From Candidatus Moraniibacteriota bacterium (GTDB lineage: Bacteria > Patescibacteriota > Minisyncoccia > Moranbacterales > GWC2-37-73): a stretch of DNA of 64,000 bases. Below, one piece after another: positions 8,153-42,443 of the stretch; within the stretch, counting starts at the first letter, position 1, and every line of letters begins with the position of its first letter. The position numbers and the translations under genes were made by a program. Location: NCBI GenBank assembly GCA_035390125.1, contig DAOOTD010000001.1, positions 31,619 to 95,618 of the forward strand, read 5' to 3'. The notes under the pieces are model-generated. The model ran no database searches. It was not told where the DNA came from and saw nothing but the letters and a program-made list of their open reading frames with translations.

Positions 8153-8165
<13 letters not shown>

Positions 8166-8184
8166 TAGGGAGATTTTGATGGTA
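8153..8184. repeat. Junction/att-like core copy A (atcacctcctttctagggag + attttgatggta) at the 16S 3' terminus
   Basis: Its left 20 nt are identical to copy C at 42424-42443. Its right 21 nt match copy B at 12445-12465 (ttctagggagattttg[a/t]ggta). Confidence 0.6.
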
Positions 8185-8390
8185 ATCGAGAATACTACAC
8201 GTGAAGACTGTTGGTGTCATCATCAACGGTTGTGGAGTATGGTTATCATCCGCTGGTCGACTCTAATTTATTAGAGAACAGCAATGCCTAGCAGAGCTAA
8301 CAGAATCTGTAGATGTGTTTGTACACACATCGGTAAACTCTTATAGGACTAATCGCAATAGGTTGTGATACATATACTTTTTGCAAGCAA

Positions 8391-8415
8391 GAACACCTTA
8401 AATGGTGTTTTTTGC
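8391..8415 (+). terminator. Rho-independent terminator of the rRNA trailer (aacacc-ttaaat-ggtgtt + T6)
   Basis: Hairpin plus T-run. Homologous to the terminator at 42563-42588. Confidence 0.65.
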
Positions 8416-8498
8416 GTTGGTCAGTCTACTCCGCTCTTGACATTTCTGCTGGTTATTCTATACTTTCAGTAGGAGTTGGAAAAACTGAACAAATTATT

Positions 8499-9149
8499 AT
8501 GGAACTACTTTCATCAAAAGAAAGCGTTGTGCTTTCTGTAATCAAAAAATTCAAAGCCAGAAATGGCTACATGCCTACATTTCAGGAAATGCTGGATGAA
8601 TGCAACAAGATTGGTCTTGCGATAAAAAGCAAGGGCTCGATTTTCACATATTTGAAATCGCTTGAGGAAAAAGGATATCTGACAAAATCTTCCGAAAAGA
8701 GAGGGTTAGATTTCATTGATCGAATGAATGAATTTTTCGTGGATGTTCCCGTGCTTGGCTCAGCATCAGCTGGCGCGCCTACTATTTTTGCCGAGGAATA
8801 TGTGCAGGGGCATCTAAAAGTCTCGAAAAAGATAGTTGGCAATAAAAATGTCTTTGCTATTCAGGTTCATGGTACGAGTATGAATTTATCACAGATAGAC
8901 AGTAAAAAAATAGATGATGGTGATTTTATCATTGTAGACTCAGAGTATAAAGATTATAAGAATGGGGACAAGTTATTGGTTGTGATTGATGGGCTGGCTA
9001 CGGTTAAGAAATTCAAAAAAATTAATGATGAAATGATGGCATTGCTTCCGGAATCGACCAACAACGAGCATCGGCCGATTTATTTAACGCCTGATGATAC
9101 CTTCATCATAAATGGAAAAGTTATCGATGTATTCAAAAGTGGAAATTAA
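8499..9149 (+). CDS. LexA/CI-like S24-peptidase family repressor
   Basis: N-terminal winged-helix-like segment. C-terminal S24 signature (VHGTSMNLSQ... with Ser; downstream LATVKKF with Lys). The listed ORF starts at 8412 but overlaps the terminator, so start 8499 (MELLSS) is preferred. Confidence 0.7.
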   Translation: MELLSSKESVVLSVIKKFKARNGYMPTFQEMLDECNKIGLAIKSKGSIFTYLKSLEEKGYLTKSSEKRGLDFIDRMNEFFVDVPVLGSASAGAPTIFAEEYVQGHLKVSKKIVGNKNVFAIQVHGTSMNLSQIDSKKIDDGDFIIVDSEYKDYKNGDKLLVVIDGLATVKKFKKINDEMMALLPESTNNEHRPIYLTPDDTFIINGKVIDVFKSGN

Positions 9150-9205
9150 CGGAGGCTTAGTCGGGCTTTCCGTTTTTTTAATAATCAATATTAATACGCA
9201 AACAA

Positions 9206-9412
9206 ATGGCGAAGTACAATCAAAACAGCGGGAAGGCTTGGACATCGAAAGATGTTTCTCAGTTAAGATCGCTGGCAAAGCAAAACACCCCTACAAGGGT
9301 AATCGGACTAAAGCTTGGCAGAACGCCTGACGCTGTGGCATCTAGAGCCAGTCAGGAGAATGTCAGTTTGAGACCAACAAATCAGTCTCCGTATAATCGG
9401 AGCAAGAAATAA
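9206..9412 (+). CDS. Small HTH DNA-binding protein (Cro/Xis-like candidate)
   Basis: 68 aa. Helix-turn-helix-like segment TPTRVIGLKLGRTPDAVASRAS. No clear SD. Followed by hairpin gcgactgaga...tctcggtcgc. Confidence 0.3.
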   Translation: MAKYNQNSGKAWTSKDVSQLRSLAKQNTPTRVIGLKLGRTPDAVASRASQENVSLRPTNQSPYNRSKK

Positions 9413-9487
9413 AAAAGGAGCGACTGAGATTGCCTGTGAAGTGGTCTCGGTCGCCCTTCCTAATTAACTTAATTTTAGCACAAAATT

Positions 9488-9748
9488 ATGGAAAACGAAA
9501 AGAAGGATAAAAAGGTGACTATAATCGTGAACACACGTCCACACGAATGGGATAAAAAAGAAGAAATTTCGTTCGAGGAGGTGGTTACGCTTGCTTTCGG
9601 AAGTTTCTCGGAAGACGCTGCAATCGCGTATACGGTTATTTACTCTCGAGGTAAAGATGAGAATAAGGAAGGCTCCTTGGTAAAGGGAGAGAGCGTAAAG
9701 GTTAAGGATGAGATGATATTCAATGCTACGCAAACAAATAAGTCTTAG
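9488..9748 (+). CDS. Multiubiquitin-family (beta-grasp, ubiquitin-like) protein
   Basis: 86 aa. KVTIIVNTRPHEW...ISFEEVVTLAFG...VKDEMIFNATQT matches my recollection of the prokaryotic 'Multiubiquitin' domain pattern (single copy, no C-terminal GG). It overlaps the downstream E1 gene by 26 nt. Confidence 0.45.
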   Translation: MENEKKDKKVTIIVNTRPHEWDKKEEISFEEVVTLAFGSFSEDAAIAYTVIYSRGKDENKEGSLVKGESVKVKDEMIFNATQTNKS

Positions 9749-10904
9749 CCCAGACTTAAAAAAACTTCAGGACGAGGGCTACGAAATTGAAGTCAAGAGT
9801 GGTTATTTGCTGGTACATCATGTGCCGTATGTGAATTCCCAAAAGGAGATTGCTTACGGCACGCTGGTGTCCAAGTTAGAGCTGGCTTCAGATAAAACGG
9901 TCAACCCTGTGGGCGACCATGTTATGAGGTTTATTGGCGAGCATCCATGTAACCATGACGGAACTGTTATTACCGCTATACAACACGCAAGTAACAACGA
10001 ACCTATTGTTGATGGGTTGACTACAAATCATAGCTTTTCCAGTAAACCTCCATCCGGACAGTATCCTGATTATTATCAAAAAATAATCACCTACGAAAGA
10101 ATTTTGTCATCACAGGCGAAGCATATTGACACTTCGGTAACCGCAATAACTTTCAAAACTATTGAGCCAGACGATGAAGAATCCGTACATCACTACATCG
10201 ATACAAATTCTACACGTGCCGACATTGGTTTAATATCAGCGAAACTCAAAGACGTAAGGGTGGCGATTGTCGGTTTGGGCGGAACTGGTTCTTACGTCTT
10301 GGATTTTATTTCGAAGACTGAAGTAAGAGAAATCCATTTATTTGATGCCGACGATTTTCTTCAGCATAACGCATTTAGGTCTCCGGGTGCTGCTTCCAAG
10401 GAAAAGCTGGATGAAAGACTCAAAAAGGTTGATTATTTTCATGGGGTGTATTCCAAAATGCACAAGAAAATTTTTTCTAGAGAATACCACCTGACAGATT
10501 CTAATTTAGAAGAAATATCGGGAATGGATTTCGTATTCATTTGCATTGACGAAGGAAAAATTAAAAAGCAAATAGCTGAGAGATTGATAGAGAAAAAAAT
10601 ACCATTTGTGGATACAGGGATTGGAATTCAATCAATCGACGGCGCTTTAATTGGCTGTATCCGCACTACCATGGCTACTCCTGAAAAAAATGATCACCTT
10701 GGACGAAGGATTGATTTCTCTGACGGAGGACATGATGCTTACACACAAAATATCCAAATCGCCGAACTTAACGCGCTTAACGCTTCGTTGGCTGTAATTA
10801 AGATGAAAAAGCATTTCGGATTTTACTATGACCAAGAAAAGGAATATAATTCAAGTTATGAAATTAGCATTAATAAAATAATCAACGATGAGACTAACTC
10901 CTAA
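9723..10904 (+). CDS. E1-like ThiF/MoeB-family adenylyltransferase with a ~160-aa N-terminal extension (possible E2-like domain)
   Basis: RVAIVGLGGTGSYVLDFI (Rossmann GxGxxG). DADDFLQHNAFRSPG. DFVFICIDEGKIKKQIAE...VDTGIG. These are typical of the ThiF/E1 fold. The N-terminal 160 aa are unassigned and contain GEHPCNHDG. Confidence 0.75.
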   Translation: MLRKQISLSPDLKKLQDEGYEIEVKSGYLLVHHVPYVNSQKEIAYGTLVSKLELASDKTVNPVGDHVMRFIGEHPCNHDGTVITAIQHASNNEPIVDGLTTNHSFSSKPPSGQYPDYYQKIITYERILSSQAKHIDTSVTAITFKTIEPDDEESVHHYIDTNSTRADIGLISAKLKDVRVAIVGLGGTGSYVLDFISKTEVREIHLFDADDFLQHNAFRSPGAASKEKLDERLKKVDYFHGVYSKMHKKIFSREYHLTDSNLEEISGMDFVFICIDEGKIKKQIAERLIEKKIPFVDTGIGIQSIDGALIGCIRTTMATPEKNDHLGRRIDFSDGGHDAYTQNIQIAELNALNASLAVIKMKKHFGFYYDQEKEYNSSYEISINKIINDETNS

Positions 10905-11241
10905 GTTTGTAAAAAACATCCCAGAAAACATCGAGGATGGCGTTATTTATATATCCATGGAATATGCTACGGCAATTCATAGGTGTTATTGTGGTTGTGG
11001 AAGTGAGGTAGTGACGCCGTTTTCTCCGACAGACTGGAAATTAACTTTTGATGGTAAAACTGTTTCGTTGCACCCGTCGATAGGTAACTGGAGTTTTCCG
11101 TGCCAATCTCATTATTGGATAATTAATAATGAGATAAGGCAAGCTGATAAATGGACAAAAAAACAGATTGAGAGTTGCAGAGAAATGGATAATCAAAGTA
11201 AGAAAAAATATCACAAAAAGAAGAGGTGGATTTGGTGGTAA
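10888..11241 (+). CDS. Small Cys/His-rich protein with an E2-like HP[S/N]I-x6-C signature, translationally coupled to the E1 gene
   Basis: 117 aa. CYCGCGSEV near the N-terminus. LHPSIGNWSFPCQSHYW has the Cys 10 residues after the His, spaced as in the UBC HPN...C motif. It overlaps the E1 stop by 17 nt. Confidence 0.45.
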   Translation: MRLTPKFVKNIPENIEDGVIYISMEYATAIHRCYCGCGSEVVTPFSPTDWKLTFDGKTVSLHPSIGNWSFPCQSHYWIINNEIRQADKWTKKQIESCREMDNQSKKKYHKKKRWIWW

Positions 11242-11366: not shown

Positions 11367-11567
11367 ATGACAAAAGCTAAATTTATCGCATTCGAAAAAG
11401 TCAGACGCAGTAGGCTAACAAATATGTATGACATCAATGCTGTCCGGCTGATCGCTATCAAATACGGTCAGATGCTTACCAATAAAGATTGCTTCGACTG
11501 CATGCTCAACTACGACAAATACCGCCGAAAATATTTAGAAGATAAATCAATATGGAAAAAACAATAA
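11367..11567 (+). CDS. Small hypothetical protein upstream of, and overlapping, int1 (excisionase/regulator candidate)
   Basis: 66-aa basic ORF overlapping the int1 start. No motif recognised. Confidence 0.3.
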   Translation: MTKAKFIAFEKVRRSRLTNMYDINAVRLIAIKYGQMLTNKDCFDCMLNYDKYRRKYLEDKSIWKKQ

Positions 11568-12436
11568 AAAATACCACTGAAGAATTTCTGAGCTGGTTGC
11601 AGGTTGAAAGACGATTCGCACAGAGTTCAATAATTTCATACAGGTCACGACTGAAATGCATTGTGCGAGATATTGGGGATATTGAAATAGGAAATATTAC
11701 CGCTGAACACATTTTCAGATTAAAATCCATCCTTTATGAACGAGAAAATTCTGAGGTGTTCACTGGCGTGGTAATGGCATCCATCAAGGGATTATTGCTC
11801 TACTCCAGAGACCTGCTGAAAATTCCTCTTCAGATTGATCCCAGCACGATAACCATCCCAAAACGCAAAAAGAAAGAAGTGGTTTATCTGACAGTCGATG
11901 AAATCAACCGATTTAGAAACAGTATCAATATTAACACGATCTGTGGTCTTCGCTTCAGGACGCTGCTTGAGGTGCTTCTGGGGACGGCCTGTCGCATCTC
12001 AGAGTGTTTAAATCTCAACAGAGACTCTATTTCACTGATTGAAAAAGAAGCGCGAATAATTGGCAAAGGTGGAAAGCAACGAGTTCTGTATTTTAATGAC
12101 GAATCGCTTTACTGGATAGACAAATATCTGAAGAGCCGGAACGATAAGTTTCCGGCTCTTTTTATAACCACCGGCGAAAAACCGCGAAGACTGGCGAATC
12201 AAGATTTAAGTCGATATTTCAAAAGGCAACGGCTTCTGGCTGGTATTTCTAAAAAGGTCACCCCACACATTTGCCGGCACACGGCCGCAACAACAATGGC
12301 GATGAATAACTGCTCAGCTATCTTTATCAAGGAAATCCTCGGCCATAGTCGGCTTCAAACTTCGATTGATTACTATATTTCACTGGCTGACAAGCAAAAG
12401 GTGAAACAAGCGCACCAGACATTTCTGGTGTATTAA
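11552..12436 (+). CDS. Tyrosine recombinase / phage-type integrase (int1)
   Basis: N-terminal SAM-like core-binding domain (FLSWLQVERRFAQSSIISYRSRL). Catalytic R...HxxR...Y (CRHTAATTMAM...GHSRLQTSIDYY). Its stop lies 8 nt before core copy B. Confidence 0.85.
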   Translation: MEKTIKNTTEEFLSWLQVERRFAQSSIISYRSRLKCIVRDIGDIEIGNITAEHIFRLKSILYERENSEVFTGVVMASIKGLLLYSRDLLKIPLQIDPSTITIPKRKKKEVVYLTVDEINRFRNSININTICGLRFRTLLEVLLGTACRISECLNLNRDSISLIEKEARIIGKGGKQRVLYFNDESLYWIDKYLKSRNDKFPALFITTGEKPRRLANQDLSRYFKRQRLLAGISKKVTPHICRHTAATTMAMNNCSAIFIKEILGHSRLQTSIDYYISLADKQKVKQAHQTFLVY

Positions 12437-12444: not shown

Positions 12445-12465
12445 TTCTAGGGAGATTTTGTGGTA
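12445..12465. repeat. Junction/att-like core copy B (ttctagggagattttgtggta)
   Basis: 20/21 nt identical to 8163-8183. It lies immediately downstream of the int1 stop. Confidence 0.55.
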
Positions 12466-12477
12466 GAATTGGATTAT

Positions 12478-13428
12478 ATGAAAGTAAATATACTCCAAAA
12501 ATACTACGATAGCTTCATAGCCCAAAAAGATAACCAATCCTTTTTAATTGGGTTGGCCGATTATATCAGATTCATTTTAGCTGATGAAAAATCTAAGGAA
12601 ATTATTTCAGAAATACAAAAATCCAAGGAGGCACTTTTGGCCGAAAAAGATAGTCTGGAGAAAACAGTTGACAGTGAAACAAGGATTGCCAAAAAAGAAT
12701 ACCTTGACATGACGGGATCATCAGAGACGGTTGATGATATTTCTCTCGCGGATAAAGTGCTCTATTCTCAGTCTCATCCGAAGTTGGCCGAGCTGGATAA
12801 AAAAATAAAAGAGGAAACGGAAACTTCAATTTGGGGAGCTTGGGATAAAATAAGTTCGGTTTATTCCGGATATTCAAATTCAACATTGAGCGACAATCTG
12901 GATATAGCGCGCTACGTGCCTTACGCGAATAGAATTCATAATTATCTCTTGGGAAAACTGGATGATAAAGCAGAATCAACTGGCAGTTATTCGGTTATGG
13001 ATTTTAAGAAAAGCAATAATGATTCAATTTTGGAAAAGGATGGACTGAAAGACATCAGTTCCATCATAATCGTCACAAGAAACCCGGGACTTAGGGACGA
13101 GTCATTGTGGTTGGTTTTTAATAACGACTTTCGCAATAAAGTTAAATTTTTAGCCAAGAAAAAACAAGCAGGCGATAATTATATCAAGAAGCTACATGAG
13201 ATTGTCGATAAAAGTAAATATGGCGCGAAGGTTCTACATGATCATCAGATAGCAACCACAATAAACTCAAAGATATTTAAAAGAGTGGGAGTCGCGGGGG
13301 TGTATAGGCAAAAGACAATTGTGGAAAAAGATGGAGATAATTTTGGGATAAATCAGGAAATTGATATTAATATTGTGCCAAAAGGAATGCTTAAGGAAGA
13401 GCAGGCTAAGTTTTTTCCAAAGGGATGA
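12478..13428 (+). CDS. Hypothetical protein
   Basis: Listed ORF 12460-13428 (GTG in the core copy); an ATG at 12478 is more likely the start. No motif recognised. Confidence 0.45.
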   Translation: MKVNILQKYYDSFIAQKDNQSFLIGLADYIRFILADEKSKEIISEIQKSKEALLAEKDSLEKTVDSETRIAKKEYLDMTGSSETVDDISLADKVLYSQSHPKLAELDKKIKEETETSIWGAWDKISSVYSGYSNSTLSDNLDIARYVPYANRIHNYLLGKLDDKAESTGSYSVMDFKKSNNDSILEKDGLKDISSIIIVTRNPGLRDESLWLVFNNDFRNKVKFLAKKKQAGDNYIKKLHEIVDKSKYGAKVLHDHQIATTINSKIFKRVGVAGVYRQKTIVEKDGDNFGINQEIDINIVPKGMLKEEQAKFFPKG

Positions 13429-13575
13429 TTTCCGAGTAGTTTCTGTCTGAAAATAATATTTACGAGAAAAGAATCGCTTATCAGAGCGGTTTTTTTGCGT
13501 TTGATTTACGAGCAAAGGTTATTTATTTGGTGCATGAAGTTGAGATAATAAGAGCATAAGATATAAAACCAATAA

Positions 13576-14541
13576 ATGATTTCCATATTTTCCGACAACT
13601 TAAACCTTTCTGACAGTTTTGACCGCTTCTTTGAGGATATTGAGGCGAATTGTTCGCTGTCCAAAAGTTCAATCGAAAAATACAAGGAAATCCGTCCCCG
13701 GATAATTAAATTCTTTGGCAATATAAGCATAAAGAAGATTGATGCTCGGATGATTACTAAATATAAGCAGTATTTGAATCAATCAAGTCAGAAGAAAGAC
13801 AACCTCAGTCCCAGTTATAAAAATCAGCACCTGACATTACTCCGTTTGCTTCTGAAATTTGTGAAGGAAAAAGAAGGCGCAAAGGTGATGGATTATGCTC
13901 AGATTTCCAAGTTCCGAGTTCCAATTAAGGAGGTTGAGACATTGAATGAGTCGGAGTTGTCCACGGTGCTTGACTACCCAAATGAGAAAACAATTACTGG
14001 GTGTCGACTGAAGGCATATTTTGAAGTTTCATTTTCAACCGGCTGTCGCGTGAAAGAAGTTTTGGGCTTGAAGATATCGGATATTAATTTCAAAGACAGG
14101 ATTGCTCACATTCGGACGAAAAATAACAAACCTCACACCATTTTGTTTTCCGATTCCTCAATTGAAGCGATTAACAAATATTTGGCTATGAGGAAAGATA
14201 ATCATCCAAATTTATTCGTGACTGCAACTCCCAATCCCAAACCATGGCAAACCAACGATGTTGAAAGGAGTCTTCGAATGATCGGACGAAAACTGAAGCT
14301 TAGTAAGAATCTCAGACCACATATTTTACGCAAATCAGCCGCGACGCACATGTATAAAAACAACGTTTCGCTCGGAGTCGTGCAAAATTTTTTAAACCAT
14401 TCCTCCGCCAGAACCACGCTGACTTACTATTTAGGCAATTCGAATTTTGAAGAGCTAAGAAGGAATCACGACAGAGTTATGAATAATCTGGATTTTAGAG
14501 ATAAGACAGATTCATCTGGAGAGGGGGTGAGAACTACATGA
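13576..14541 (+). CDS. Tyrosine recombinase / integrase (int2), related to int1
   Basis: HILRKSAATHMYKNNVSLGVVQNFLNHSSARTTLTYY (HxxR...Y). The catalytic region is similar to that of int1. Confidence 0.85.
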   Translation: MISIFSDNLNLSDSFDRFFEDIEANCSLSKSSIEKYKEIRPRIIKFFGNISIKKIDARMITKYKQYLNQSSQKKDNLSPSYKNQHLTLLRLLLKFVKEKEGAKVMDYAQISKFRVPIKEVETLNESELSTVLDYPNEKTITGCRLKAYFEVSFSTGCRVKEVLGLKISDINFKDRIAHIRTKNNKPHTILFSDSSIEAINKYLAMRKDNHPNLFVTATPNPKPWQTNDVERSLRMIGRKLKLSKNLRPHILRKSAATHMYKNNVSLGVVQNFLNHSSARTTLTYYLGNSNFEELRRNHDRVMNNLDFRDKTDSSGEGVRTT

Positions 14542-14957
14542 AGTTGCAGAAAAAGGAAACTATGGGGATGCCTTTCGCCAAGAAAGGAACAGATGTCAAA
14601 GAAGGAGACATAATCACCATAGGTAGTGAAGGGAAGATTGTGGAAACTCAATTCGGCTCACAGAACATTTTTGAAATCAAAACTGCTAATGGCGTGGAAT
14701 TGGTTTTGGGTATCAACCAGACCAGCATCAATGCCTTGGTGGATGCTTTCGGAGAAGAAACTGCGAACTGGGTAGGCAAGAAGGTAAAAGTTCATTCATT
14801 TAAGCAAAATGTGGCTGGTAAATTTATACAGGTTTACTATGTCGCACCAGAAGGCTATGAAATGGGTGAAAACGGATTTGAGAAATCCGGATCAGTAGGA
14901 GTGGTTAACGCTCATATGAGTGAAGAATGCGCGGTTGTGGAAGACAACGCTTTCTAA
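14538..14957 (+). CDS. Hypothetical protein
   Basis: 139-aa ORF overlapping the int2 stop. No motif. Confidence 0.4.
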   Translation: MKLQKKETMGMPFAKKGTDVKEGDIITIGSEGKIVETQFGSQNIFEIKTANGVELVLGINQTSINALVDAFGEETANWVGKKVKVHSFKQNVAGKFIQVYYVAPEGYEMGENGFEKSGSVGVVNAHMSEECAVVEDNAF

Positions 14958-15036
14958 GGTTAGTTTGTGTGCTGGGCAGAATTTTTCTGCTTAGCCATAA
15001 GTTAATTTTAACAGATAAAAAATTTTAAGAAAGGGA

Positions 15037-15064
15037 TTGACAAGGCTATGAGAACTGATAAAAT
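15037..15064 (+). promoter_or_regulatory. Strong sigma70-type promoter TTGACA-16-TAAAAT
   Basis: Hexamers at 15037-15042 and 15059-15064. Confidence 0.5.
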
Positions 15065-15069
15065 ACAAT

Positions 15070-15220
15070 TAGAAAATAAAATATTTGGACTTACTTCGTC
15101 TGGAGTTTCGCTGTATTCAGATGGTCGAAGTAGGAAGTCTTTCTCAATATTAGGTCTGAGAAAAAGTCCGCAAACAATTATCACTTTTAGTGGTAGGCGT
15201 TTGCGGGCTTTTTGTTTATT
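15070..15220 (+). ncRNA. Candidate small RNA or regulatory leader (~150 nt) between the promoter and a terminator, upstream of the primase gene
   Basis: Long interrupted hairpin gacttacttcg...cgaagtaggaagtc (15089-15140). Terminator-like stem ccgcaaac/gtttgcgg (15168-15206) followed by gctttttgtttatt. The only ORF here (15048-15233) is low-complexity and begins inside the -10 element. Confidence 0.3.
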
Positions 15221-15312
15221 AAATTTTAACTAACTTGTTCGGTGGCTCCTGCTGGCCTTGGATGCGAACTATTCCGTCCATCCGAGGTCAACTGGAGTCA
15301 CGACGGAATTAT

Positions 15313-17856: not shown

Positions 17857-17944
17857 GTAGGAGTTAAACAATGTCTTGCAATGTCCAGCAGCTGGACAAA
17901 AAAGGCTTTAATAAGGGGAAAAGTAATCAATAATCATCAAAAAT

Positions 17945-18175
17945 ATGACCAACACTAAAAAGAAAATTGAAGAGCTGAATCAGGTTCTTTCCGATCACTC
18001 CGATATGAGGGGAAGTCGGCAAGTGTTCTATCTGTTTCCGCAATTCTATCAGGAAAAGTTATATAAGCTGGAAGTCCTGCTTTCTGAAAAATATGGCATC
18101 GCGGGAAAGTCCAAAATTATAGCTCTGGCAGTAAGCTATCTAATCAAGGAAATAGAAAAAGATGAAAAAGTATAA
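17945..18175 (+). CDS. Small hypothetical protein
   Basis: 76 aa. Overlaps the start of the downstream MTase gene. Confidence 0.3.
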   Translation: MTNTKKKIEELNQVLSDHSDMRGSRQVFYLFPQFYQEKLYKLEVLLSEKYGIAGKSKIIALAVSYLIKEIEKDEKV

Positions 18176-19226: not shown

Positions 19227-19246
19227 TCAATTAACCAAATGCCAAA

Positions 19247-28857: not shown

Positions 28858-28865
28858 GAAAAACT

Positions 28866-31789: not shown

Positions 31790-31793
31790 AATT

Positions 31794-32639: not shown

Positions 32640-32644
32640 TCAAA

Positions 32645-33877: not shown

Positions 33878-33881
33878 AACA

Positions 33882-34553: not shown

Positions 34554-34582
34554 ATAATTTTTAAATTTATAAATTAAAAAAT

Positions 34583-35581
34583 ATGCCAAAAGTTAAGAAA
34601 GCAATTTATTGGATCATTGTTGTCGCTATTGTGATAACGATAGGATCCATAATTTGGGGAAATAAGAACAAGAAAGCGGATTATACACTTACTCCGGTTA
34701 GCAAGGGGACGCTAACCCGGACCATTTCAGCCAACGGAGAATATTTATCTAAAGACGAAGCTAATGTCAGTTTTCGAATATCCGGACCGCTCATCAACGT
34801 TAAAGTGGATGTTGGGGACAAAGTGAAACAGGGACAATTTTTAGCCAGTGTTGATACGGGCACTTTAACGGAAAAATTGGAACAAGCAAAAAAAGCGGTT
34901 ACGATCCAGAAAAAGACTTTGGCTTATCAAAAAGATAAGGATGATTTATATACCAAGGACCAACGCAGTGCTCAAAAGGCGGCGATCCAGCAAGCAGAGG
35001 CCGCCGTTGATGAAATTTCCAAACAATTCCAATATGCCAACATTAATGCACCGATAGGCGGAACAGTAGCTGAAAAAAATGCAAACATTGGAGAAATAGT
35101 TCAGGCCGGAAGCCCAGTGATTAAGATTGTTCGGGAAGACGAAATGAGAATTGAAGCTAGGGTTCCAGAAGTGGATATTGCCGGAGTCAGAGTCGGTCAG
35201 AAAATAAGTGTCAAATTTGATGCTTATCCGGAAAATCAAATATTTGAAGCGGAGGTAACGGAAATAGATCCAACTCCAGTTACCGTTCAGAACGTTGTTT
35301 ACTACGTGGTCAAAATGCAGGTTGAAAATCCCGATGCAGGACTGCGATATGGTATGAACTGCACAATTTATGATAAGGTAGCCCAAAAAGATAATGTACT
35401 TATGATTCCCAAAGGAGTAATAGAAAAAGAAGGAGATAAAAAATTCGTTACCGTTCTGACTGATATCAAGAAACAAACAGTTGAAAAAAGAGAAATACAA
35501 ACCGGACTGGAAGGAGATAATGGAATAGTGGAGATTGTTTCCGGTCTGAAAGAAGGCGAGCAGATAGCGACGGAGAAATAA
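34583..35581 (+). CDS. HlyD/MacA-family periplasmic adaptor subunit
   Basis: N-terminal TM. Coiled-coil/lipoyl-like organisation, following the ABC pair. Confidence 0.7.
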   Translation: MPKVKKAIYWIIVVAIVITIGSIIWGNKNKKADYTLTPVSKGTLTRTISANGEYLSKDEANVSFRISGPLINVKVDVGDKVKQGQFLASVDTGTLTEKLEQAKKAVTIQKKTLAYQKDKDDLYTKDQRSAQKAAIQQAEAAVDEISKQFQYANINAPIGGTVAEKNANIGEIVQAGSPVIKIVREDEMRIEARVPEVDIAGVRVGQKISVKFDAYPENQIFEAEVTEIDPTPVTVQNVVYYVVKMQVENPDAGLRYGMNCTIYDKVAQKDNVLMIPKGVIEKEGDKKFVTVLTDIKKQTVEKREIQTGLEGDNGIVEIVSGLKEGEQIATEK

Positions 35582-35665
35582 TAAAAAATTATCGCAGCTA
35601 AAATAGTTTCTTAAGCGTATTAAAAGCATGACTCAAAAAGTATTTTCTGTGATTAAATTTACTTT

Positions 35666-36916
35666 ATGCGTATTCTTCTAATCTCAGATCACGCCGATCC
35701 ATTGGCGGAAATCGGGTCCAAAGAAGCCGGAGGGCAAAATATCTATGTTTTCTACCTAGCAAAATTTTTGTGCCGACTTGGAATTTTAGTTGATGTGTAT
35801 ACTCGTTGGGACAGAAAAAACAAAAAAGAAATTGTTAAATTCAACAATCATTTAAGGGTTATAAGGGTTAAAGCGGGTCCGAAAAGGTATATACCTAGAG
35901 ATAATTTTTTAGGTGTTGTGGATGAATTTACGGAAAATATATTGAAAAGAGTAAAAAAGGAAAAAATAAATTATGATATAATTCATACAAACTACTGGTT
36001 TTCGGGGCTTATTGGTTTAAAAGTTGCTAAAAAAATCAAGAAACCGCTTGTTCATATTTATCATTCTATCGGTCAAGTGAGATTTGAGAGTTTGAAAAAA
36101 TACAAATTTCAGGAAACCAACAATGCTTTTTTTGAACAAAGAACGATTTTTGAAAAAGAAATAGCCCAAAAAGCGGACAAGATAATTACGACCAGTCCGG
36201 TGGAAAAAGAAATTATCAAAAATCTTTTTAGAATCAGCGGTGAAAAAATACAAACCATAACTATCGGGGTGGATACGAAAATATTTAGGCCGATAAAAAC
36301 CGAAAGAGCCAGAAAACTGGCAAAAGTCGAAACTAACGGAAAAATCATTCTTTATGTCGGCAGAATCGAATGGAGAAAAGGAATCGGAACACTGCTTTAC
36401 GCCTTCAAAGAAGTTATTAAAAAATATCCCAATGCAAGATTATTTGTTATCGGCGGGGGCAAAAGCAAATCGGCAAGAAAGCTGGAAGAGGCTGAATGTG
36501 AGCGACTAAAAAAAATCTCTCAAGAATTAGGAATAGAAAAGAGAGTAAAATTCCTTGGTCCAAAAAAGCAAAAAGAACTATATAAATATTATTCAGCTGC
36601 CGATGTATGTGTTGTTTCCTCATATTATGAACCGTTTGGAATAGTTCCTCTGGAATCAATGGCTTGCGGAACCCCTGTAATCGCTTCGCGCACTGGAGGG
36701 TTGCGATATACCGTAAAAGACAAAATAACAGGATGCCTGTTTGAACCCAAAAATTATTCTGATTTAGCCGAAAAAATAAACATCGTTTTGAAAAACGGAA
36801 AAGATTTTTATACGGGAAACTGTTTAAAAAGAATCAACGATGATTTTCAATGGGAAGAAATAGCTGATCAATATGACAATTTTTTTAATCAATTAATAAA
36901 CAAAACAAAAAAATGA
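35666..36916 (+). CDS. Glycosyltransferase family 4
   Basis: N-terminal MRILLISDHADPLAEIGSKEAGGQN. C-terminal EPFGIVPLESMACGTPVIASRTGG. Confidence 0.8.
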   Translation: MRILLISDHADPLAEIGSKEAGGQNIYVFYLAKFLCRLGILVDVYTRWDRKNKKEIVKFNNHLRVIRVKAGPKRYIPRDNFLGVVDEFTENILKRVKKEKINYDIIHTNYWFSGLIGLKVAKKIKKPLVHIYHSIGQVRFESLKKYKFQETNNAFFEQRTIFEKEIAQKADKIITTSPVEKEIIKNLFRISGEKIQTITIGVDTKIFRPIKTERARKLAKVETNGKIILYVGRIEWRKGIGTLLYAFKEVIKKYPNARLFVIGGGKSKSARKLEEAECERLKKISQELGIEKRVKFLGPKKQKELYKYYSAADVCVVSSYYEPFGIVPLESMACGTPVIASRTGGLRYTVKDKITGCLFEPKNYSDLAEKINIVLKNGKDFYTGNCLKRINDDFQWEEIADQYDNFFNQLINKTKK

Positions 36917-37953
36917 AAATTGCAATAGTAGCTCCATTTGAGGAAAAAGTTCCCCCACATAAATATGGCGGAACGGAACTTGTTGTTTATAACTTGACTC
37001 AGCAGTTAGTAAAGATGGGTCATGATGTTACGCTCATAGCAACTGGAGATTCCCAAACAAGCGCCAAGCTGGAAGTCATTTTCAAAAGATCGCTCAGAAG
37101 TATTCCTGATCTTACGGACATGAAGTTACGGGAAGCTTATAAATTTATTGGGATAGGAAAAGTGGTAACATATTTAAATGAAAATGATTTTAATGTTGTT
37201 CATAATCATATTGGCTGGAGATTGCTTCCTTTTGAAAAAATTATCGCTTGTCCGGTAGTCACAACTCTTCACGGACCTCTCGATGTTCCTTATCAGCAGA
37301 GAGTTTATGGCGAGTTTAGCGAGTCAAATTACATAAGCATCAGCATGAATCAACGAAAACCGATGCCAGAACTTAATTTTGTGGCAAACGCTTATAATGG
37401 TCTGGATATGGAAAAATTTAGACAAAATTACCAGCCAAAAGATTATTTCGCATTTCTTGGCAGAATGTCTCCGGAGAAGGGACCGGTTCAAGCCATAGCG
37501 GTGGCAAAAAAAGCGGGGGTGAAATTGATTATGGCAGCCAAAGTTGATCTGGTTGATGAGGAATATTTCAAGAAAGAAGTAGAACCATTAATTGATGACG
37601 ATCAGATTAAATTTATCGGAGAAGTTGATCATGAAGAAAAAGTGGAGCTTCTTGGAAATGCTAAGGCTTTAATCGCTCCGATTCAGTGGGAAGAACCTTT
37701 TGGTTTGTTTTTTACCGAAGCAATGGCTTGTGGGGCGCCTGTGTTTGCAATGAGACGCGGATCCGTTCCGGAAATCGTAATAGATAAAAAAACAGGATTT
37801 ATCTGTGACAGTGTGGATGAGATGGCGGAGAAAATAAAAAGAGTTGATGAAATTGACAGAAAGGATTGCTTCGAACATGTTAAGAAAAATTTTTCTTCGG
37901 AAAAAATGACGAAAGATTACATTAAGGCTTACGAAAAGGTAATGAAAAAATAA
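36913..37953 (+). CDS. Glycosyltransferase family 4
   Basis: EPFGLFFTEAMACGAPVFAMRRGSVPEIV (GT-B, GT4 E-x7-E region). Confidence 0.8.
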   Translation: MKIAIVAPFEEKVPPHKYGGTELVVYNLTQQLVKMGHDVTLIATGDSQTSAKLEVIFKRSLRSIPDLTDMKLREAYKFIGIGKVVTYLNENDFNVVHNHIGWRLLPFEKIIACPVVTTLHGPLDVPYQQRVYGEFSESNYISISMNQRKPMPELNFVANAYNGLDMEKFRQNYQPKDYFAFLGRMSPEKGPVQAIAVAKKAGVKLIMAAKVDLVDEEYFKKEVEPLIDDDQIKFIGEVDHEEKVELLGNAKALIAPIQWEEPFGLFFTEAMACGAPVFAMRRGSVPEIVIDKKTGFICDSVDEMAEKIKRVDEIDRKDCFEHVKKNFSSEKMTKDYIKAYEKVMKK

Positions 37954-37974
37954 CGCCTATAAGCAAGCTACTTT

Positions 37975-39168
37975 ATGTTTAACTTCAAAAAAAGATATTC
38001 AGGCATAAGCCGAAATGTGGTTATTCTTGGAGTTGTCAGTTTGCTGACGGATCTTTCTGGGCAGATGGTTTTTCCATTGCTCCCTCTTTATATTACCTCA
38101 GTTTTGGGTGGCGGAGCGGTAGCTGTTGGCCTGGTTGAAGGAGCGGCCGAAGCGGCCGCCTCGCTTTTAAAAGTCGTTTCCGGCTATTGGTCGGATAAAA
38201 TAAAAAGCAGGAAACCGTTTGTTTTTTTTGGCTATACCCTTTCGGCTATAATGAAGCCGGTCCTGGCTTTTTCCGGCAGTTGGTTTTCCGTGCTACTCAT
38301 CCGAATATTAGACCGAGTAGGAAAAGGTTTGCGTGACGCGCCACGCGACGCTATTATTGCCGAATCTAATAATCAGGCAACATTAGGCAAGGCTTACGGA
38401 TTCAACCGGGCGTTGGATGGGCTGGGTTCAGTTGGCGGATCAGTATTGGCATTTTTGCTGCTTCCGGTTTTTGGTTTTGTAAACTTATTTAAGCTAGCCA
38501 TTATTCCCGGTTTAGTTTCGGTGGGGGTGATTTCTTTGGTAAAAGAACCGGAAAGAATTAAAAAAGTTGAGAAAAAAATTTCCTTGAAAGTAGGATTTGG
38601 CGAATTGACGCGCGAGTTAAAAATATTTATTCTGGTTGCGACAATTTTTACACTGGGAAATTACAGCTATGCTTTTTTGATGCTTCGGGCGAAGGCGGAC
38701 GGACTGGGAGATGAAAAAACTATCATGCTTTACGCTCTTTTTTATTTAGTCTACACCCTTTTGTCTATGAAAGCCGGATCATTGTCCGACAAATTTGGCA
38801 GAAAACCGATAATTTTGGCCGGATACGGAATGTTTACTCTCTTATCTATCGGGCTTTATTTATTTGGCGGTGTTACATTTACAATAATTTCGTTCATACT
38901 TTTCGGAATATTTTTTTCCTTGATTGATGGCACTCAGCGGGCATTCGTTTCTGATTTGTCACCGGCTCGTCTCAAGGGAACGGCTCTGGGAACTTTCCAT
39001 ACGTTTACCGGTTTAGCGGCTCTCCCTGCCGGATATATTGCCGGAGAACTTTGGACAAAAATAAGTCCGGAAGCGACGTTTTTGTTTGGAGCTATAATCG
39101 GGAGTGTTTCCATTTTGATTTTTTACTGTTCACTGAGCAATTGTAAAATTAATTATAATAAAGCATAA
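37975..39168 (+). CDS. MFS transporter
   Basis: 12-TM-like hydropathy. MFS motif-A-like region (GYWSDKIKSRKP). Confidence 0.75.
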   Translation: MFNFKKRYSGISRNVVILGVVSLLTDLSGQMVFPLLPLYITSVLGGGAVAVGLVEGAAEAAASLLKVVSGYWSDKIKSRKPFVFFGYTLSAIMKPVLAFSGSWFSVLLIRILDRVGKGLRDAPRDAIIAESNNQATLGKAYGFNRALDGLGSVGGSVLAFLLLPVFGFVNLFKLAIIPGLVSVGVISLVKEPERIKKVEKKISLKVGFGELTRELKIFILVATIFTLGNYSYAFLMLRAKADGLGDEKTIMLYALFYLVYTLLSMKAGSLSDKFGRKPIILAGYGMFTLLSIGLYLFGGVTFTIISFILFGIFFSLIDGTQRAFVSDLSPARLKGTALGTFHTFTGLAALPAGYIAGELWTKISPEATFLFGAIIGSVSILIFYCSLSNCKINYNKA

Positions 39169-39191
39169 AACTAATTTTCTATTAAACAAAA

Positions 39192-41645
39192 ATGAAATAT
39201 AAAAATCTTACATCGGAAGAAGTTGAAAGAAATCAAATCAAGTTTGGAAAAAATGTTTTGCCGGAAGAAAAAACCGTTCCGGCAATCAGGCTTTTTCTGG
39301 CGCAGTTTGCCAACCCTTTAGTTTATATTCTTTGTTTTGCCGCTCTAATATCTCTCTTTCTTCATAAATATTTTGATATAGCACTCATTCTCTCTGTTGT
39401 TGTTGTTAATGCTATTATGGGATTTTTTCAAGAGAATAAGACGCAAAAAACTTTGGCGGCTCTCAAAAAATTGGTAAAACCGAACGCTAAAGTTTTGCGC
39501 GACAATCAAAGACAGGATATTGAAGCGTCAGAATTGGTTCCGGGGGATGTTGTTTTTCTCGCTGTCGGAGATAAGATTCCGGCTGATGGAAAAATTTTAG
39601 AATCAATCTCTTTTCTGATTAATGAAGCTATCTTAACCGGTGAAAGTGAGGCGGTGGAAAAAAAAGAAGGGGAAGAAGCTTATATGGGAACGATTGTTTC
39701 TTCCGGCCGGGCGGTAATGCAAGTGACGAATATTGGCATCGCGACAAAAATCGGAGAAATTGCCGAAACCCTGAAAGATACGCAGCAGCCGATAACCACT
39801 CTCCAAATCCGTTTGAAAAAATTGACCCAAAATTTAATTTACATTTCAATTTTCTTGGCGGTCTTGGTATTTATTTTTGGTTTTGCAACCGGCCGGGATT
39901 TTTGGCAGATGGCCGAACTTTCCGCCATTCTTTTGGTGGCGATTATTCCCGAAGCCTTGCTTATTGTTATTACTTTGGTATTGGTGCTGGCAATGCGTGA
40001 CAGCCTGAAAAGAAAAGCGCTTATCAGGAAAATTTTAGCGGTGGAAACTTTGGGATCGGTTACGACAATTTGCACGGATAAAACCGGCACGCTCACAGAA
40101 GGAAAAATGAAGATTGTTGAAACTGATTTTTCCGACCAAGAGAATAGTTTTTTGGCAATGTGTCTTTGCAATGACAGGAGTGATACTGTGGAAATTGCGC
40201 TTTGGGATTATCTGGATGGGTTAAAAGATTTTGACCAGCAAGAAAATTTTGATAAATATAACAGAGTTTTTGAAATTCCTTTCGGCAGTGAGCATAAATT
40301 TATGCTTACAGCCAATCATCTTTCAGATGGCAGCGGCAATCATTTTATAGCCATCAAAGGAGCGCCGGAAGTTATTTTGAAAATGTCTAATTTGAGCGAG
40401 GAAGATAAGAAAATAATAACATCCAAAATTCACAGATGGGCAGAAAAAGGACTAAAGGTGCTGGCATTGGCTCACAAAAAAATATCGCAGGAGGAGATAG
40501 AGGAAATAAAAAACAAAAAAATATCCGGATTTGAGTGGAGTGGAATAGTTGGTCTTTGGGATCCGCCGCGAAAAGAAGTGAAAGAAACGCTGGCGATCGC
40601 CAGGGAATCGGGGCTAAAGATAAAGGTGGTGACTGGTGATTACCACCGCACGGCAGTAAAAATTATGGAATCCTTGGGAATGAAGGTTTCGTCCGGCGAG
40701 ATTTTAAAAGGAAGCGAATTGGAAGAATTAAGCGATGAAGAATTAAAAAATAAAATTACCAACATTTTGTTATTTGCCAGGGTAACTCCGGAGCAAAAAC
40801 TGAGGATAGTTACCGCTCTTCAGGAACTGGGAGAAATTGTGGCTATGACCGGAGATGGCGTAAATGATGCGCCAGCGCTCAAAAAATCCAACATTGGAAT
40901 AGTAGTGGGAGATGCTTCGGAGGTAGCTAAGGAAACCGCCGATCTTATACTTCTGGACAATAATTTCAAAACGATTATTTCCGCAATTGAAGCCGGAAGG
41001 TTGGTCTTTGAAAATATCAAAAAGATAATCTTGTTCATCCTTTCCAATTCTTTTGCGGAAGTAGTGGTTATTATGGGTGCTTTGATTTTAGACTGGCCGT
41101 TTCCTCTTACAATCGTTCAAATCCTGTGGCTCCATCTTCTGTGCGACGGGCCGGAGGATTTTATTCTGGGTTTCGAACCAAAAGAAAAAGAAACAATGCT
41201 TGATGGACCCAAAAGAATGGACGAACCGATTTTTGGAAAGCTCAGTATTTTTTTGACTGTAGCAATATCTCTTCTCTCCGGCCTTATCTCTCTCGGCTTT
41301 TTCTGGTACTTCGGTTTATATCAAGGGAATGTAGCTCTTGGTCAGACAATGGCTTTTATGTCGCTGGCTTTCAGCTCTGTTGTTTATATTTTTTCCTGCC
41401 GGACGCTTCGCAAACCGTTTTGGAAATATGAAAATTTTTGGTCCAATAAATGGCTTTTTGCGGTTGTGATTTTTAGTTTATTTTTAGCTACTATTATCAC
41501 GTATTTTCCTCCGACCCAAAAACTTCTAAATCTGATTCCCTTGAATTTATTCCAATGGAGTTTGCTGGTGGCAAAAGCAGTATTGCTGGTTTTGGTTATT
41601 GAAATAGGAAAGTTAACGATGAAGCCAAAAAATAAAAAGAGTTGA
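39192..41645 (+). CDS. P-type cation-transporting ATPase (type II, Ca2+/Mg2+-like)
   Basis: Phosphorylation site ICTDKTGTLT. TGES. Hinge MTGDGVNDAPAL. Confidence 0.9.
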   Translation: MKYKNLTSEEVERNQIKFGKNVLPEEKTVPAIRLFLAQFANPLVYILCFAALISLFLHKYFDIALILSVVVVNAIMGFFQENKTQKTLAALKKLVKPNAKVLRDNQRQDIEASELVPGDVVFLAVGDKIPADGKILESISFLINEAILTGESEAVEKKEGEEAYMGTIVSSGRAVMQVTNIGIATKIGEIAETLKDTQQPITTLQIRLKKLTQNLIYISIFLAVLVFIFGFATGRDFWQMAELSAILLVAIIPEALLIVITLVLVLAMRDSLKRKALIRKILAVETLGSVTTICTDKTGTLTEGKMKIVETDFSDQENSFLAMCLCNDRSDTVEIALWDYLDGLKDFDQQENFDKYNRVFEIPFGSEHKFMLTANHLSDGSGNHFIAIKGAPEVILKMSNLSEEDKKIITSKIHRWAEKGLKVLALAHKKISQEEIEEIKNKKISGFEWSGIVGLWDPPRKEVKETLAIARESGLKIKVVTGDYHRTAVKIMESLGMKVSSGEILKGSELEELSDEELKNKITNILLFARVTPEQKLRIVTALQELGEIVAMTGDGVNDAPALKKSNIGIVVGDASEVAKETADLILLDNNFKTIISAIEAGRLVFENIKKIILFILSNSFAEVVVIMGALILDWPFPLTIVQILWLHLLCDGPEDFILGFEPKEKETMLDGPKRMDEPIFGKLSIFLTVAISLLSGLISLGFFWYFGLYQGNVALGQTMAFMSLAFSSVVYIFSCRTLRKPFWKYENFWSNKWLFAVVIFSLFLATIITYFPPTQKLLNLIPLNLFQWSLLVAKAVLLVLVIEIGKLTMKPKNKKS

Positions 41646-41752
41646 TGGAATTGACAGAAAAAATTATTTTAAACATGTTAGGAAATTTTTCTTCGGAAAA
41701 AATGACGAGAAATTATGTCAATGCTTTTGAGGAAGTTATAATTGAACAATAA
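41626..41752 (+). pseudogene. Duplicated ~125-nt fragment of the 3' end of the GT4 gene (homologous to 37832-37953)
   Basis: Aligns colinearly at ~80% identity, including ...agagttgatg[a/g]aattgacagaaa...tttttcttcggaaaaaatgacga.... The P-type ATPase stop codon lies inside the duplicated segment. Confidence 0.6.
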
Positions 41753-41778
41753 ACTTTGACAAGTAAAAAAATATAGAT

Positions 41779-42390
41779 ATGGAATCGAAAATAAAGAAAA
41801 TTCTTGAAAGAATAGATTTGCTAAATGAAGCGTTAAGAAAAGAATATTCGCAGCTTGGGAAAAAATACGGATTTCTGATAAAACAGCGGAAGGTTATATT
41901 TTTAGAAAAAATCAGGGAAAGAAACAAAAAACTTCGCATACCTGCTTGGAAATACGCTATTCCAAAAAGTATCCGTCACTTTCTTTCCATGCCCTTTATT
42001 TATATGATGATTTTCCCTGTAGTGATCCTGGACATATTCATCACTGTTTATCATTGGGCCGCTTTTCCTCTGTATGGTATTCCGAAAGTCAAAAGAAGGG
42101 AATATATAGTTTACGACAGAAAGTTTCTTGATTATCTTAATGTTATCCAAAAAGTGAATTGTCTGTATTGCAGTTATGCAAACGGTTTCTTTGCTTATTC
42201 TTTGGAGATTGCGGCCCGGACAGAAAGATATTGGTGTCCGATTAAAGCTGCCCATAAACCGAAAGTTTATCATAATTGGTACAAGGATTTTGCCGATTAC
42301 GGAAATCCCGAGGAGTGGAATCATAAATTCAACGACCAAAAAGCCTTTGAAGAATTGAAAAAAATATCTTCGGAAAAACAAAACAAATAA
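41779..42390 (+). CDS. Hypothetical membrane-associated protein
   Basis: 203-aa ORF with a central hydrophobic segment. Preferred over the F-rich antisense ORF 41902-42411. Confidence 0.45.
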   Translation: MESKIKKILERIDLLNEALRKEYSQLGKKYGFLIKQRKVIFLEKIRERNKKLRIPAWKYAIPKSIRHFLSMPFIYMMIFPVVILDIFITVYHWAAFPLYGIPKVKRREYIVYDRKFLDYLNVIQKVNCLYCSYANGFFAYSLEIAARTERYWCPIKAAHKPKVYHNWYKDFADYGNPEEWNHKFNDQKAFEELKKISSEKQNK

Positions 42391-42423
42391 AAACAATTTA
42401 AGCATTTCCAAAATTTGCCGACA

Positions 42424-42443
42424 ATCACCTCCTTTCTAGGGAG
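42424..42443. repeat. Junction/att-like core copy C (atcacctcctttctagggag), a displaced copy of the 16S 3' terminus
   Basis: 20/20 identical to 8153-8172. Followed by a trailer whose 3' part and terminator are homologous to 8340-8415. Confidence 0.6.

Follow-up and report, generated by a model that had tools for sequence, protein, structure and literature searches.

The 64-kb window analyzed here (64,000 nt of contig DAOOTD010000001.1, from a Candidatus Moraniibacteriota bacterium) contains about 34 kb of DNA that lies between the 3′ end of a 16S rRNA gene and murI and encodes three tyrosine recombinases, int1, int2, and int3. This region is probably a genomic island that was built in layers at one attachment site, the end of the single, unlinked 16S gene. 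Related loci in other assemblies are designated by L or P numbers.

Copies of the 16S terminus and their trailers

The window contains exactly two copies of the 20-mer ATCACCTCCTTTCTAGGGAG, copy A at 8153-8172 and copy C at 42424-42443, both on the + strand, and 100 dinucleotide shuffles of the window contain none. Rfam finds one full-length bacterial small-subunit (SSU) rRNA, spanning 6673-8164, and, at the gathering threshold, no other rRNA in the 64 kb; ARAGORN finds no tRNA there. The 16S gene is therefore unlinked, with no 23S or tRNA gene within 64 kb. Because only one SSU and no tRNA are present, copy A is the true 3′ end of 16S, and no rRNA precedes copy C. A shorter third copy, B, follows int1. 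These three copies, and the homology of the trailers and terminators after A and C, had been reported in an earlier reading of the sequence (the original prediction), and all are confirmed. The features at the junctions are the following.

6526..6547, + strand: 5′ leader strand of the 16S precursor processing helix (GCAATTTATTGCGGTTAGTCCT), the reverse complement of the trailer motif
6673..8166, + strand: complete 16S rRNA gene (Rfam RF00177, 1402.8 bits, model positions 1-1533)
8153..8172, + strand: core copy A (predicted attL), the last 14 nt of 16S plus AGGGAG
8173..8417, + strand: A-type trailer, a putative replacement, with the helix 3′ strand at 8345-8366 and a terminator hairpin and T-run at 8392-8417
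11552..12436, + strand: int1, a Xer-like tyrosine integrase of 294 aa (Pfam Phage_integrase, 7e-30)
12445..12465, + strand: partial core copy B (TTCTAGGGAGATTTTG-TGGTA), 8 nt past the int1 stop, a probable relic or secondary junction
42424..42443, + strand: core copy C (predicted outer attR-type junction), whose left flank and core (1 mismatch) are orthologous in L107
42444..42590, + strand: C-type 16S trailer, with the helix strand at 42533-42554 and a terminator at 42564-42590

Copy B aligns with 8163-8184, with identity at 21 of 22 positions and one indel, and its local alignment score is reached by none of 300 random windows of the same sequence. It is kept with two changes in L020/L024. 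The idea that a unit of trailer and integrase generally leaves a degenerate core after every int1 was rejected, as a significant copy exists only in the window and in L024/L020, with a faint one in L025. An 11-nt core-like match at position 9238 of L024 falls within coding sequence and was attributed to chance.

The minimal core common to all related loci is CACCTCCTTTCTA(G/A)GGA. The core taken as the int1 substrate is CACCTCCTTTCTAGGGAG, and small inverted arms, CTCC-N7-GGAG, can be read off its sequence. Another candidate explanation, that the short cores are ribosome-binding sites on the opposite strand, is true of one match only (L026, 8895). The cores upstream of integrase genes run past the Shine-Dalgarno complement into TCTA(G/A)GGA and then into trailer motifs.

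Every junction is covered by independent assemblies at 99.95-100% identity (L001 for A, L101 and L102 for ~29.7 kb, and L003 for C), and misassembly is therefore excluded. The guanine-cytosine (GC) fraction is 0.38-0.43 within the region, compared with 0.32-0.36 in the flanks. These flanks carry housekeeping genes, with SerRS and a GH1 hydrolase on the left and murI, RsgA, and a class I tRNA synthetase on the right; the start of murI is called as TTG by gene callers. A 68-aa open reading frame (ORF) at 42653-42859, between the terminator of the C-type trailer and murI, has no Pfam match and is called in independent assemblies.

The trailers after A and C share the motif AGGACTA(AT/GC)C(G/A)CAATAGnTTGTGA, also written AGGACTA..C.CAATAG.TTGTGA, which is followed by an AACACC-loop-GGTGTT hairpin and then by TTTTGCGT (repeat family D17). 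This structure is likely the usual leader-trailer processing helix of a 16S precursor together with an intrinsic terminator. Folding of the full-length leader-trailer duplex gave unrealistically long duplexes and weak z-scores, and the helix was instead scored by motif extraction and explicit pair counting. Over seven leader/trailer pairs from the window and related genomes, the 22-bp helix is 93.5% paired, compared with 28-50% when one strand is slid by 1-3 columns, and three of its pairs show changes on both sides. With the window's own leader, the A trailer forms 17 of 17 pairs in the helix core and the C trailer has one A-C mismatch. Both trailer types can probably form the helix with the leader of this genome. 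The strand complementary to its own 16S leader and the terminator support the view that the proximal A-type trailer acts as a replacement.

The same junctions recur in other genomes. A complete 16S gene is joined directly to a C-type trailer in seven relatives (L011, L014, L015, L017, L021, L022, and L108), which supports the earlier proposal that the original 3′ end was displaced to C. In L017, the left synteny SerRS-x-GH1-16S is kept, its proteins being 38-48% and its 16S 92% identical to those of the window. A-type trailers follow 16S in L019, in L020/L024, and at the second repeat copy of L011. The same core and C trailer are found after unrelated sequence in L012/L013/L018 and in L016, the last of which shares a contig with L021. 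Junctions of the attR type, in which the same core has unrelated left flanks, occur in L010/L098, L012, L016, L026, and L107. A scan of metagenomes for the core followed by either trailer type gave 12 matches; no third trailer type was found by scanning viral contigs.

Two loci have repeats that enclose an island. The cleanest is L042, from Saccharibacteria, whose 190-nt direct repeats (99% identical) each combine the trailer with the final 13 nt of 16S. Between them are 4.9 kb that carry an integrase, three small genes, and a LOOT RNA, and a host M23 peptidase and ZIP transporter lie beyond. In L011, from a second Moranbacteria lineage, an integrase fragment, MarR, HlyD, and an RND pump lie downstream of a full 16S gene and its C trailer; at the distal end, a 143-nt repeat (100%) of the 16S end is joined to an A trailer and then a LexA-like gene. 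The trailer order of L011 is thus reversed relative to that of the window, and therefore an island can have either trailer type on either side.

Core C and its trailer together (42424-42490, comprising the core and the first 47 nt of the trailer) form a 67-nt stretch that is 100% identical to L011 513-579 and L017 8639-8705, although identity between the genomes is only 92% in 16S and 38-48% in the flanking proteins. Either horizontal exchange or unusually strong constraint seems to have acted on the 16S 3′ flank. Relatives also carry 16S intervening sequences at positions corresponding to window 7772-7795 and 8031/8032 (L014, L015, L019, L020, L022, L024, L029, and L050). The insertions at 8031/8032 are ~860-980 nt long. 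LAGLIDADG ORFs are found among the intervening sequences, as are a group I intron in L050 and group II intron domains in L029. At 7772-7795, strain L001 carries an additional ~143 nt (L001 13026-13192) that are absent from the window.

Core C and its trailer could instead be left over from a decayed second rRNA operon, or from segmental duplication at the 16S 3′ end, with the genes from A to C being ordinary chromosome. The two trailers are indeed homologous, with the same stem motif and terminator, and the 16S fragment of L011 is longer (143 nt), its start coinciding exactly with the 8031/8032 intron insertion site. However, only 14 nt of 16S are retained at C; they end at the same base as the real gene, and a protein ORF stops 33 nt upstream. 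An Rfam scan of the whole window detects no rRNA remnant at C, and there is no 23S, 5S, or tRNA near it. The short core follows unrelated sequence in at least nine other loci, always co-oriented and beside an int1-clade integrase. Three integrases, a terminase, and defense genes lie inside the region, and its GC deviates from that of the flanks. Genomes of the candidate phyla radiation (CPR) normally have a single rRNA copy, which also counts against a second operon. This origin is highly improbable.

The int1 clade and 16S 3′ ends

An alignment of int1 was scanned against one genome per species, yielding 70 loci, 29 of which encode recombinases at least 38% identical to int1 (the int1 clade) and 41 of which encode more distant ones. 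The core was defined as CACCTCCTTTCTA with at most one mismatch, upstream and on the same strand. Such a core is present at 24 of the 29 int1-clade loci, within 1.5 kb in 22 of these 24 and typically 230-550 nt away; at the remaining five, less than 350 nt of upstream sequence is available before the contig ends. It is absent from all 41 loci that encode more distant recombinases. This integrase lineage is thus specifically tied to the target sequence (24/29 versus 0/41).

BLAST and Rfam identify a 16S gene or its 3′ part at the core in 13 of the 24 loci, which come from Moranbacteria, Saccharibacteria, Doudnabacteria, Nomurabacteria, and other Parcubacteria. At nine other loci, including those from Bryobacteraceae, Syntrophobacteraceae, and Syntrophorhabdus, the core is preceded by unrelated DNA, often with another int1-like gene; the position of this gene ahead of the core suggests tandem arrays. 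That the 16S 3′ end serves as an attachment site, as originally predicted, is strongly supported both by this link between the int1 clade and the core and by the other islands flanked by 16S ends.

The closest int1 loci are in metagenome-assembled genomes (MAGs) of Candidatus Moranbacteria/Moraniibacteriota, and int1 is 84% conserved with L020, L023, and L024. The catalytic residues of a tyrosine recombinase are all present in int1 (R148, K172, H239-x-x-R242, H265, and Y274) and do not vary in its alignment (A6). No arm-binding domain is recognizable in int1. In a cultured-phage collection, no relative of int1 exceeds 29% identity, and the best matches (25-29%) are annotated as XerC or XerD. 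A 49-kb IMG/VR contig carries an int1 relative (36%) followed by the exact 20-mer and trailer-like sequence.

In two viral contigs from GC-richer IMG/VR organisms, L008 (3300007360_000036) and L009 (3300050582_000125), the 20-mer belongs to a 16S 3′ end. The L008 copy, at or close to the limit of the available stretch, is followed by phage genes. Downstream of the L009 copy, which is 34 nt from the contig start, are another tyrosine integrase, with 29% identity to both int1 and int3, and structural genes. Use of the 16S end may extend to further integrase lineages.

These observations bear on a broader proposal, namely that a clade of short Xer-like integrases targets the 16S 3′ terminus across several phyla and that interchangeable trailers rebuild the host's only SSU maturation signals at each integration. 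We regard the case for this proposal as evenly balanced.

Gene content and layering of the region

The gene content of the region (32 ORFs) was derived from Pfam, PHROGs, and PADLOC. The features other than those at the junctions are the following.

8412..11241, + strand: cargo cassette between trailer and int1 (Pfam)
8412-9149, + strand: LexA-like S24 repressor (Pfam)
9488-9748, + strand: Multi_ubiq protein (Pfam)
9723-10904, + strand: DUF6791+ThiF E1-like protein (Pfam)
10888-11241, + strand: DUF6527/BubE protein (Pfam)
12469..23533, + strand: conserved replication/packaging-like module (Pfam, PHROGs)
13576-14541, + strand: int2, tyrosine recombinase (Pfam)
15235-17856, + strand: Toprim primase (Pfam/PHROGs)
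20448-21986, + strand: TerL, large terminase (Pfam/PHROGs)
22682-23533, + strand: int3, tyrosine recombinase (Pfam)
23647..23773, + strand: LOOT RNA (Rfam RF03000) directly after int3, 87.8 bits against a gathering score of 46.4
23737..29591, + strand: defense and accessory cargo, with a TM2 protein, a PIF1-like helicase, a SoFic-like Fic protein, a cyclase and Cap15 2TM effector of a cyclic oligonucleotide-based antiphage signaling system (CBASS), and a SWIM protein (Pfam, PADLOC)
29727..29729, no strand: right limit of the window-specific 21.6-kb module, where homology to L107 and L108 begins
29812..42390, + strand: older block, with TetR, a CrtC/AttH lipocalin, a patatin, FtsX-ABC-HlyD, two GT4 glycosyltransferases, the MFS and P-type ATPase insertion, and a 203-aa protein (Pfam; synteny)
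37975..41739, + strand: secondary insertion with MFS and P-type ATPase genes, between ~110-nt direct repeats of the GT4 3′ end

The 34 kb appears to be layered rather than one recent element. The segment from 8173 to ~29727 is the young layer, being 100% identical between strains and absent from L108. At its right limit, the GC fraction drops from ~0.41 to ~0.37, and several assemblies break at 29.81-30.03 kb. L001 is 99.7% identical to the window in the left flank, compared with 100% over the 8 kb of island that it covers, with the step at 7795. L100/L103 are 98.5% identical up to ~30.4 kb and 84-86% identical beyond.

The block from 29727 to 42423 is syntenic in L107, L108, L109, and L110. 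In L107, GT4-GT4-203aa is followed by a spacer orthologous to that of the window, a core that differs at one position, and an A-type trailer split by the ATPase. The junction of the old block with core C probably predates speciation. L108/L109 have a 94% identical 16S with a C-type trailer, two genes, and then TetR-...-FtsX-ABC-HlyD-...-203aa, and this locus contains neither an integrase nor a distal core.

The MFS and ATPase genes look like a second, separate insertion or permutation event. They lie between GT4 3′-end repeats at 37831-37943 and 41629-41739 (families D1 and D2, 79-84% identity); in L107, GT4 directly adjoins the 203-aa gene, and the ATPase is found on the far side of the core. 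In L108, part of the window's P-type ATPase gene is recognizable in the spacer after the 203-aa gene (10594-10918), at 83% identity over 134 nt. This spacer resembles a remnant left where the core/trailer/ATPase segment seen in L107 has been deleted.

The three tyrosine recombinases of the original prediction are confirmed by Pfam (Phage_integrase E-values of 7e-30, 1.3e-34, and 3.2e-37 for int1, int2, and int3, respectively). The conserved module contains, in order, a 319-aa ORF without assignment, int2, a 139-aa ORF, the Toprim primase, a D12 methyltransferase, a ParB-like nuclease, a TerS-like protein, TerL, a 164-aa ORF, and int3. The 319-, 139-, and 164-aa ORFs, all unassigned, span 12469-13428, 14538-14957, and 22129-22623, respectively. 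The order int1-int2-(primase)-methyltransferase-ParB-TerS-TerL-164aa-int3(-PIF1) downstream of 16S is kept in five other MAGs (L023, L024, L025, L027, and L028). Because this order is conserved as a block, the parts to the left and right of B are not independent newcomers. The B junction is, moreover, present in L020/L024. The earlier suggestion that a 4.3-kb mini-element arrived later at this site is therefore not upheld. In L020/L024, the trailer joins the region just upstream of int1. Because their A-to-B unit consists only of trailer and int1, the LexA/Bub genes of the window are an extra 2.9-kb cassette in a variable slot.

At L026, a reverse transcriptase (9041-9901; RVT_1, 7e-25) lies between a 16S-type trailer and an int1-like gene. 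Since it occupies the place of the window's LexA/Bub cassette, the slot may collect defense genes. In L027 and L028, the slot holds genes without assignment, and Pfam gave almost no assignments for the cargo slots of L027, L028, and L098.

All recognizable defense genes of the window (the Bub-like set, SoFic, and CBASS) lie inside the region, as had been noted earlier. PADLOC identifies a CBASS of type I (cyclase, 6e-107; 2TM effector, 2e-73) and SoFic (7e-37). The Multi_ubiq, E1-like, and DUF6527 set (9488-11241) stands beside the LexA-like repressor and looks like a bacterial ubiquitination-like (Bub-type) defense operon in a CPR genome; the PADLOC models of 2023 match only its E1-like protein, and weakly.

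LOOT RNA is also found at the int1-family loci L042 (13407-13524), L044 (11383-11513), and L032 (4199-4294). The LOOT-bearing int1-clade loci next to 16S-end cores come from Moranbacteria, Saccharibacteria, Parcubacteria, and Nomurabacteria. The RNA may be a component of 16S-end elements.

Pfam and PHROGs detect no capsid, portal, tail, or lysis genes in the region, several of whose ORFs lack an assignment, and the region is probably not an intact prophage. Likewise, no Pfam domains of relaxases, type IV coupling proteins, or secretion genes occur in its 32 ORFs, and it does not appear to be an integrative conjugative or mobilizable element.

In an alternative to layering, one integration event brought in all 34 kb (8173-42423) as a single element that is still mobile, with A as attL and C as attR. 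The TetR-to-203aa genes would then be its backbone, the 203-aa gene and core its right arm, and the int1 module with the defense genes a variable cargo slot reaching to 29727. The outer repeats, perfect over 20 nt, and the GC raised throughout the region would fit such an element. So would the 203-aa/core junction shared with L107, the order 16S-core-trailer-(2 genes)-TetR of L108, which fits a variable slot after the trailer, and the variation of the right flank, which is murI here and MarR-HlyD in L107 and L108. However, the two halves diverge very differently (98.5-100% versus 84-86%). L108, moreover, has the block but neither the integrase nor the distal core, and the block consists of ordinary transport and glycosyltransferase genes ending in a broadly conserved CPR protein. 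We consider a single element unlikely. The original prediction of a 34-kb integration accordingly stands in part: a composite island does start exactly at the 16S 3′ terminus and has a displaced flank at C, but the data do not favor one unit with murI as the original neighbor.

Patterns for the corresponding circle and the empty site were also defined. The attP junction would combine the left side of C, the core, and the right side of A (TTTGCCGACA-ATCACCTCCTTTCTAGGGAG-ATTTTGATGG), and the empty site would read GTGGATGG-ATCACCTCCTTTCTAGGGAG-TTAAGGTGAAG and then murI. The latter arrangement, which had been expected earlier (16S, core, C trailer, murI), was not found. A 16S gene with core and C trailer lacking the int1 module exists in other species (L017, L021, L022, and L108), and in none of them does murI follow. 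Two murI relatives, P0003 and P0006, were rejected as empty sites, as no 16S lies upstream of their murI. A Logan contig break at window 42523 was likewise set aside as empty-site evidence; it is explained by a C-type trailer shared among co-occurring species.

Several points weigh against an island built by integration at the 16S end. The attP junction is absent from the 12 metagenome matches and the viral contigs, although assembled contigs rarely capture circles; this absence counts against a single mobile element as well. No same-species empty site was found, and the murI synteny of the closest relatives (murI 73-76% identical) contains no 16S. In non-CPR genomes, no 16S lies within 10 kb ahead of the core upstream of the integrase. 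Element-proximal trailers match the host leader, and at some loci the trailer could be native rather than imported. An element would not usually end in a gene such as the one beside core C, whose 203-aa product is conserved widely among CPR bacteria. Finally, the young module has no recognizable core or trailer at its right end near 29.7 kb, and therefore its last move may have been homologous recombination rather than site-specific integration.

This last point leads to a serious partial rival, in which the island is real but has spread mainly by homologous recombination, through transformation or transduction, with the highly conserved 16S as the left anchor, the conserved TetR block as the right anchor, and int1 and the cores as relics of earlier events. 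The lack of an att-like right end would be accounted for in this way, as would the sharp identity steps at 7795 (99.7 to 100%) and ~30.4 kb (98.5 to 84%), which lie in or beside conserved genes. Assembly breaks at 29.8-30.0 kb are as expected from strain mixtures. Left unexplained, however, are the position of an integrase clade 230-550 nt from the core across phyla and the clean 143-190-nt repeats that flank L011 and L042. In addition, int1 retains all of its catalytic residues and its conservation with L020, L023, and L024. Spread mainly by homologous recombination is possible but somewhat doubtful, and a layered island at one attachment site remains our preferred explanation.

Proposed mechanism, known systems, and significance

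Our analysis allows a mechanism to be proposed for the layered island. The attachment site would be the last 13-20 nt of 16S and the first bases after it, with the minimal core given above. An int1-clade Xer-like integrase would recombine this 16S-end site with an identical core on the element, and int1 itself is the likely catalyst. Because the block of identity covers the 16S terminus, 16S would be rebuilt intact, including the anti-Shine-Dalgarno sequence. The element would bring a new 3′ trailer, with a strand that pairs with the 16S 5′ leader and a terminator, while the former core and trailer would be pushed to the far end, where they would now form core C and the C-type trailer beside murI. 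Core A would thus be the current attL with an element-type replacement trailer, and core C the outermost, old attR-type scar next to host DNA. Three layers would result: (i) an old block from TetR to the 203-aa gene, (ii) the young 21.6-kb module from 8173 to ~29727 with the recombinases and the SoFic and CBASS defense genes, and (iii) the small LexA/Bub and MFS/ATPase cassettes. The LexA-like repressor presumably controls the recombination, and the primase and terminase genes may reflect the lifestyle of a satellite or of a degraded prophage.

The island resembles the P4-type and Islander-type islands at tRNA and tmRNA 3′ ends, in which the 3′ end of a stable-RNA gene is targeted and the gene is rebuilt from the element's copy. 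Flanking direct repeats, an integrase at the target-proximal end, tandem accretion, and defense cargo are further likenesses. In contrast to these islands, the target here is the 16S terminus with its anti-Shine-Dalgarno sequence, and the element must also replace a terminator and a long trailer that pairs with a leader 1.6 kb away. The integrase also differs, being short and Xer-like (294 aa) with no recognizable arm-binding domain.

The young module is similar to phage satellites such as the phage-inducible chromosomal islands (PICI) in that an integrase, a LexA/S24 repressor-like gene, a primase, and a small-terminase-like gene lie within ~15 kb and no capsid, portal, or tail genes were found. 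Unlike PICI, it encodes a large terminase as well as three recombinases, has no known helper phage, and contains no recognized capsid-redirecting genes. Its satellite status is only suggested, by gene content. Integrative mobile elements exploiting Xer (IMEX) at dif, such as the CTX phage, likewise rely on Xer-like recombinases and a short core with small inverted arms, but here the recombinase is encoded by the element rather than the host, and the target is the 16S end rather than dif.

The rRNA insertions of CPR bacteria (group I and II introns, LAGLIDADG) and the eukaryotic R2 elements also exploit the extreme conservation of rRNA genes. Those insertions lie inside the mature rRNA and are spliced or disruptive, whereas the island follows the last 16S base, depends on a DNA recombinase, and carries tens of kilobases of cargo. 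A literature search of incomplete coverage found no natural elements that integrate at the 16S 3′ end, only engineered 16S integrations. Because of this incomplete coverage, the two features that appear new, the 16S terminus as a target and the need for the trailer to pair with a distant leader, are provisionally so described.

The 16S end is among the most conserved bacterial sequences, and an integrase that targets it would have a ready attachment site in almost any host. If this targeting is real, the family would be a natural candidate tool for DNA insertion in CPR bacteria, which are uncultured and genetically intractable. Because metagenome contigs break at 16S, assemblies systematically separate such islands from their attachment site, and the islands go unnoticed.

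For CPR bacteria, whose genomes are small and have few recognizable mobile elements, the island shows a place where defense is stored, here CBASS, SoFic, and the Bub set. If the proposal holds, the 16S locus would be the main defense-island hotspot in CPR bacteria with unlinked rRNA genes. A 16S-maturation flank can come from a mobile element, which bears on the evolution of rRNA processing signals and of unlinked 16S and 23S genes. Pre-rRNA 3′ flanks would then be horizontally mobile, and this mobility would explain how 67 nt of core and trailer can be 100% identical between genomes whose 16S is only 92% identical.

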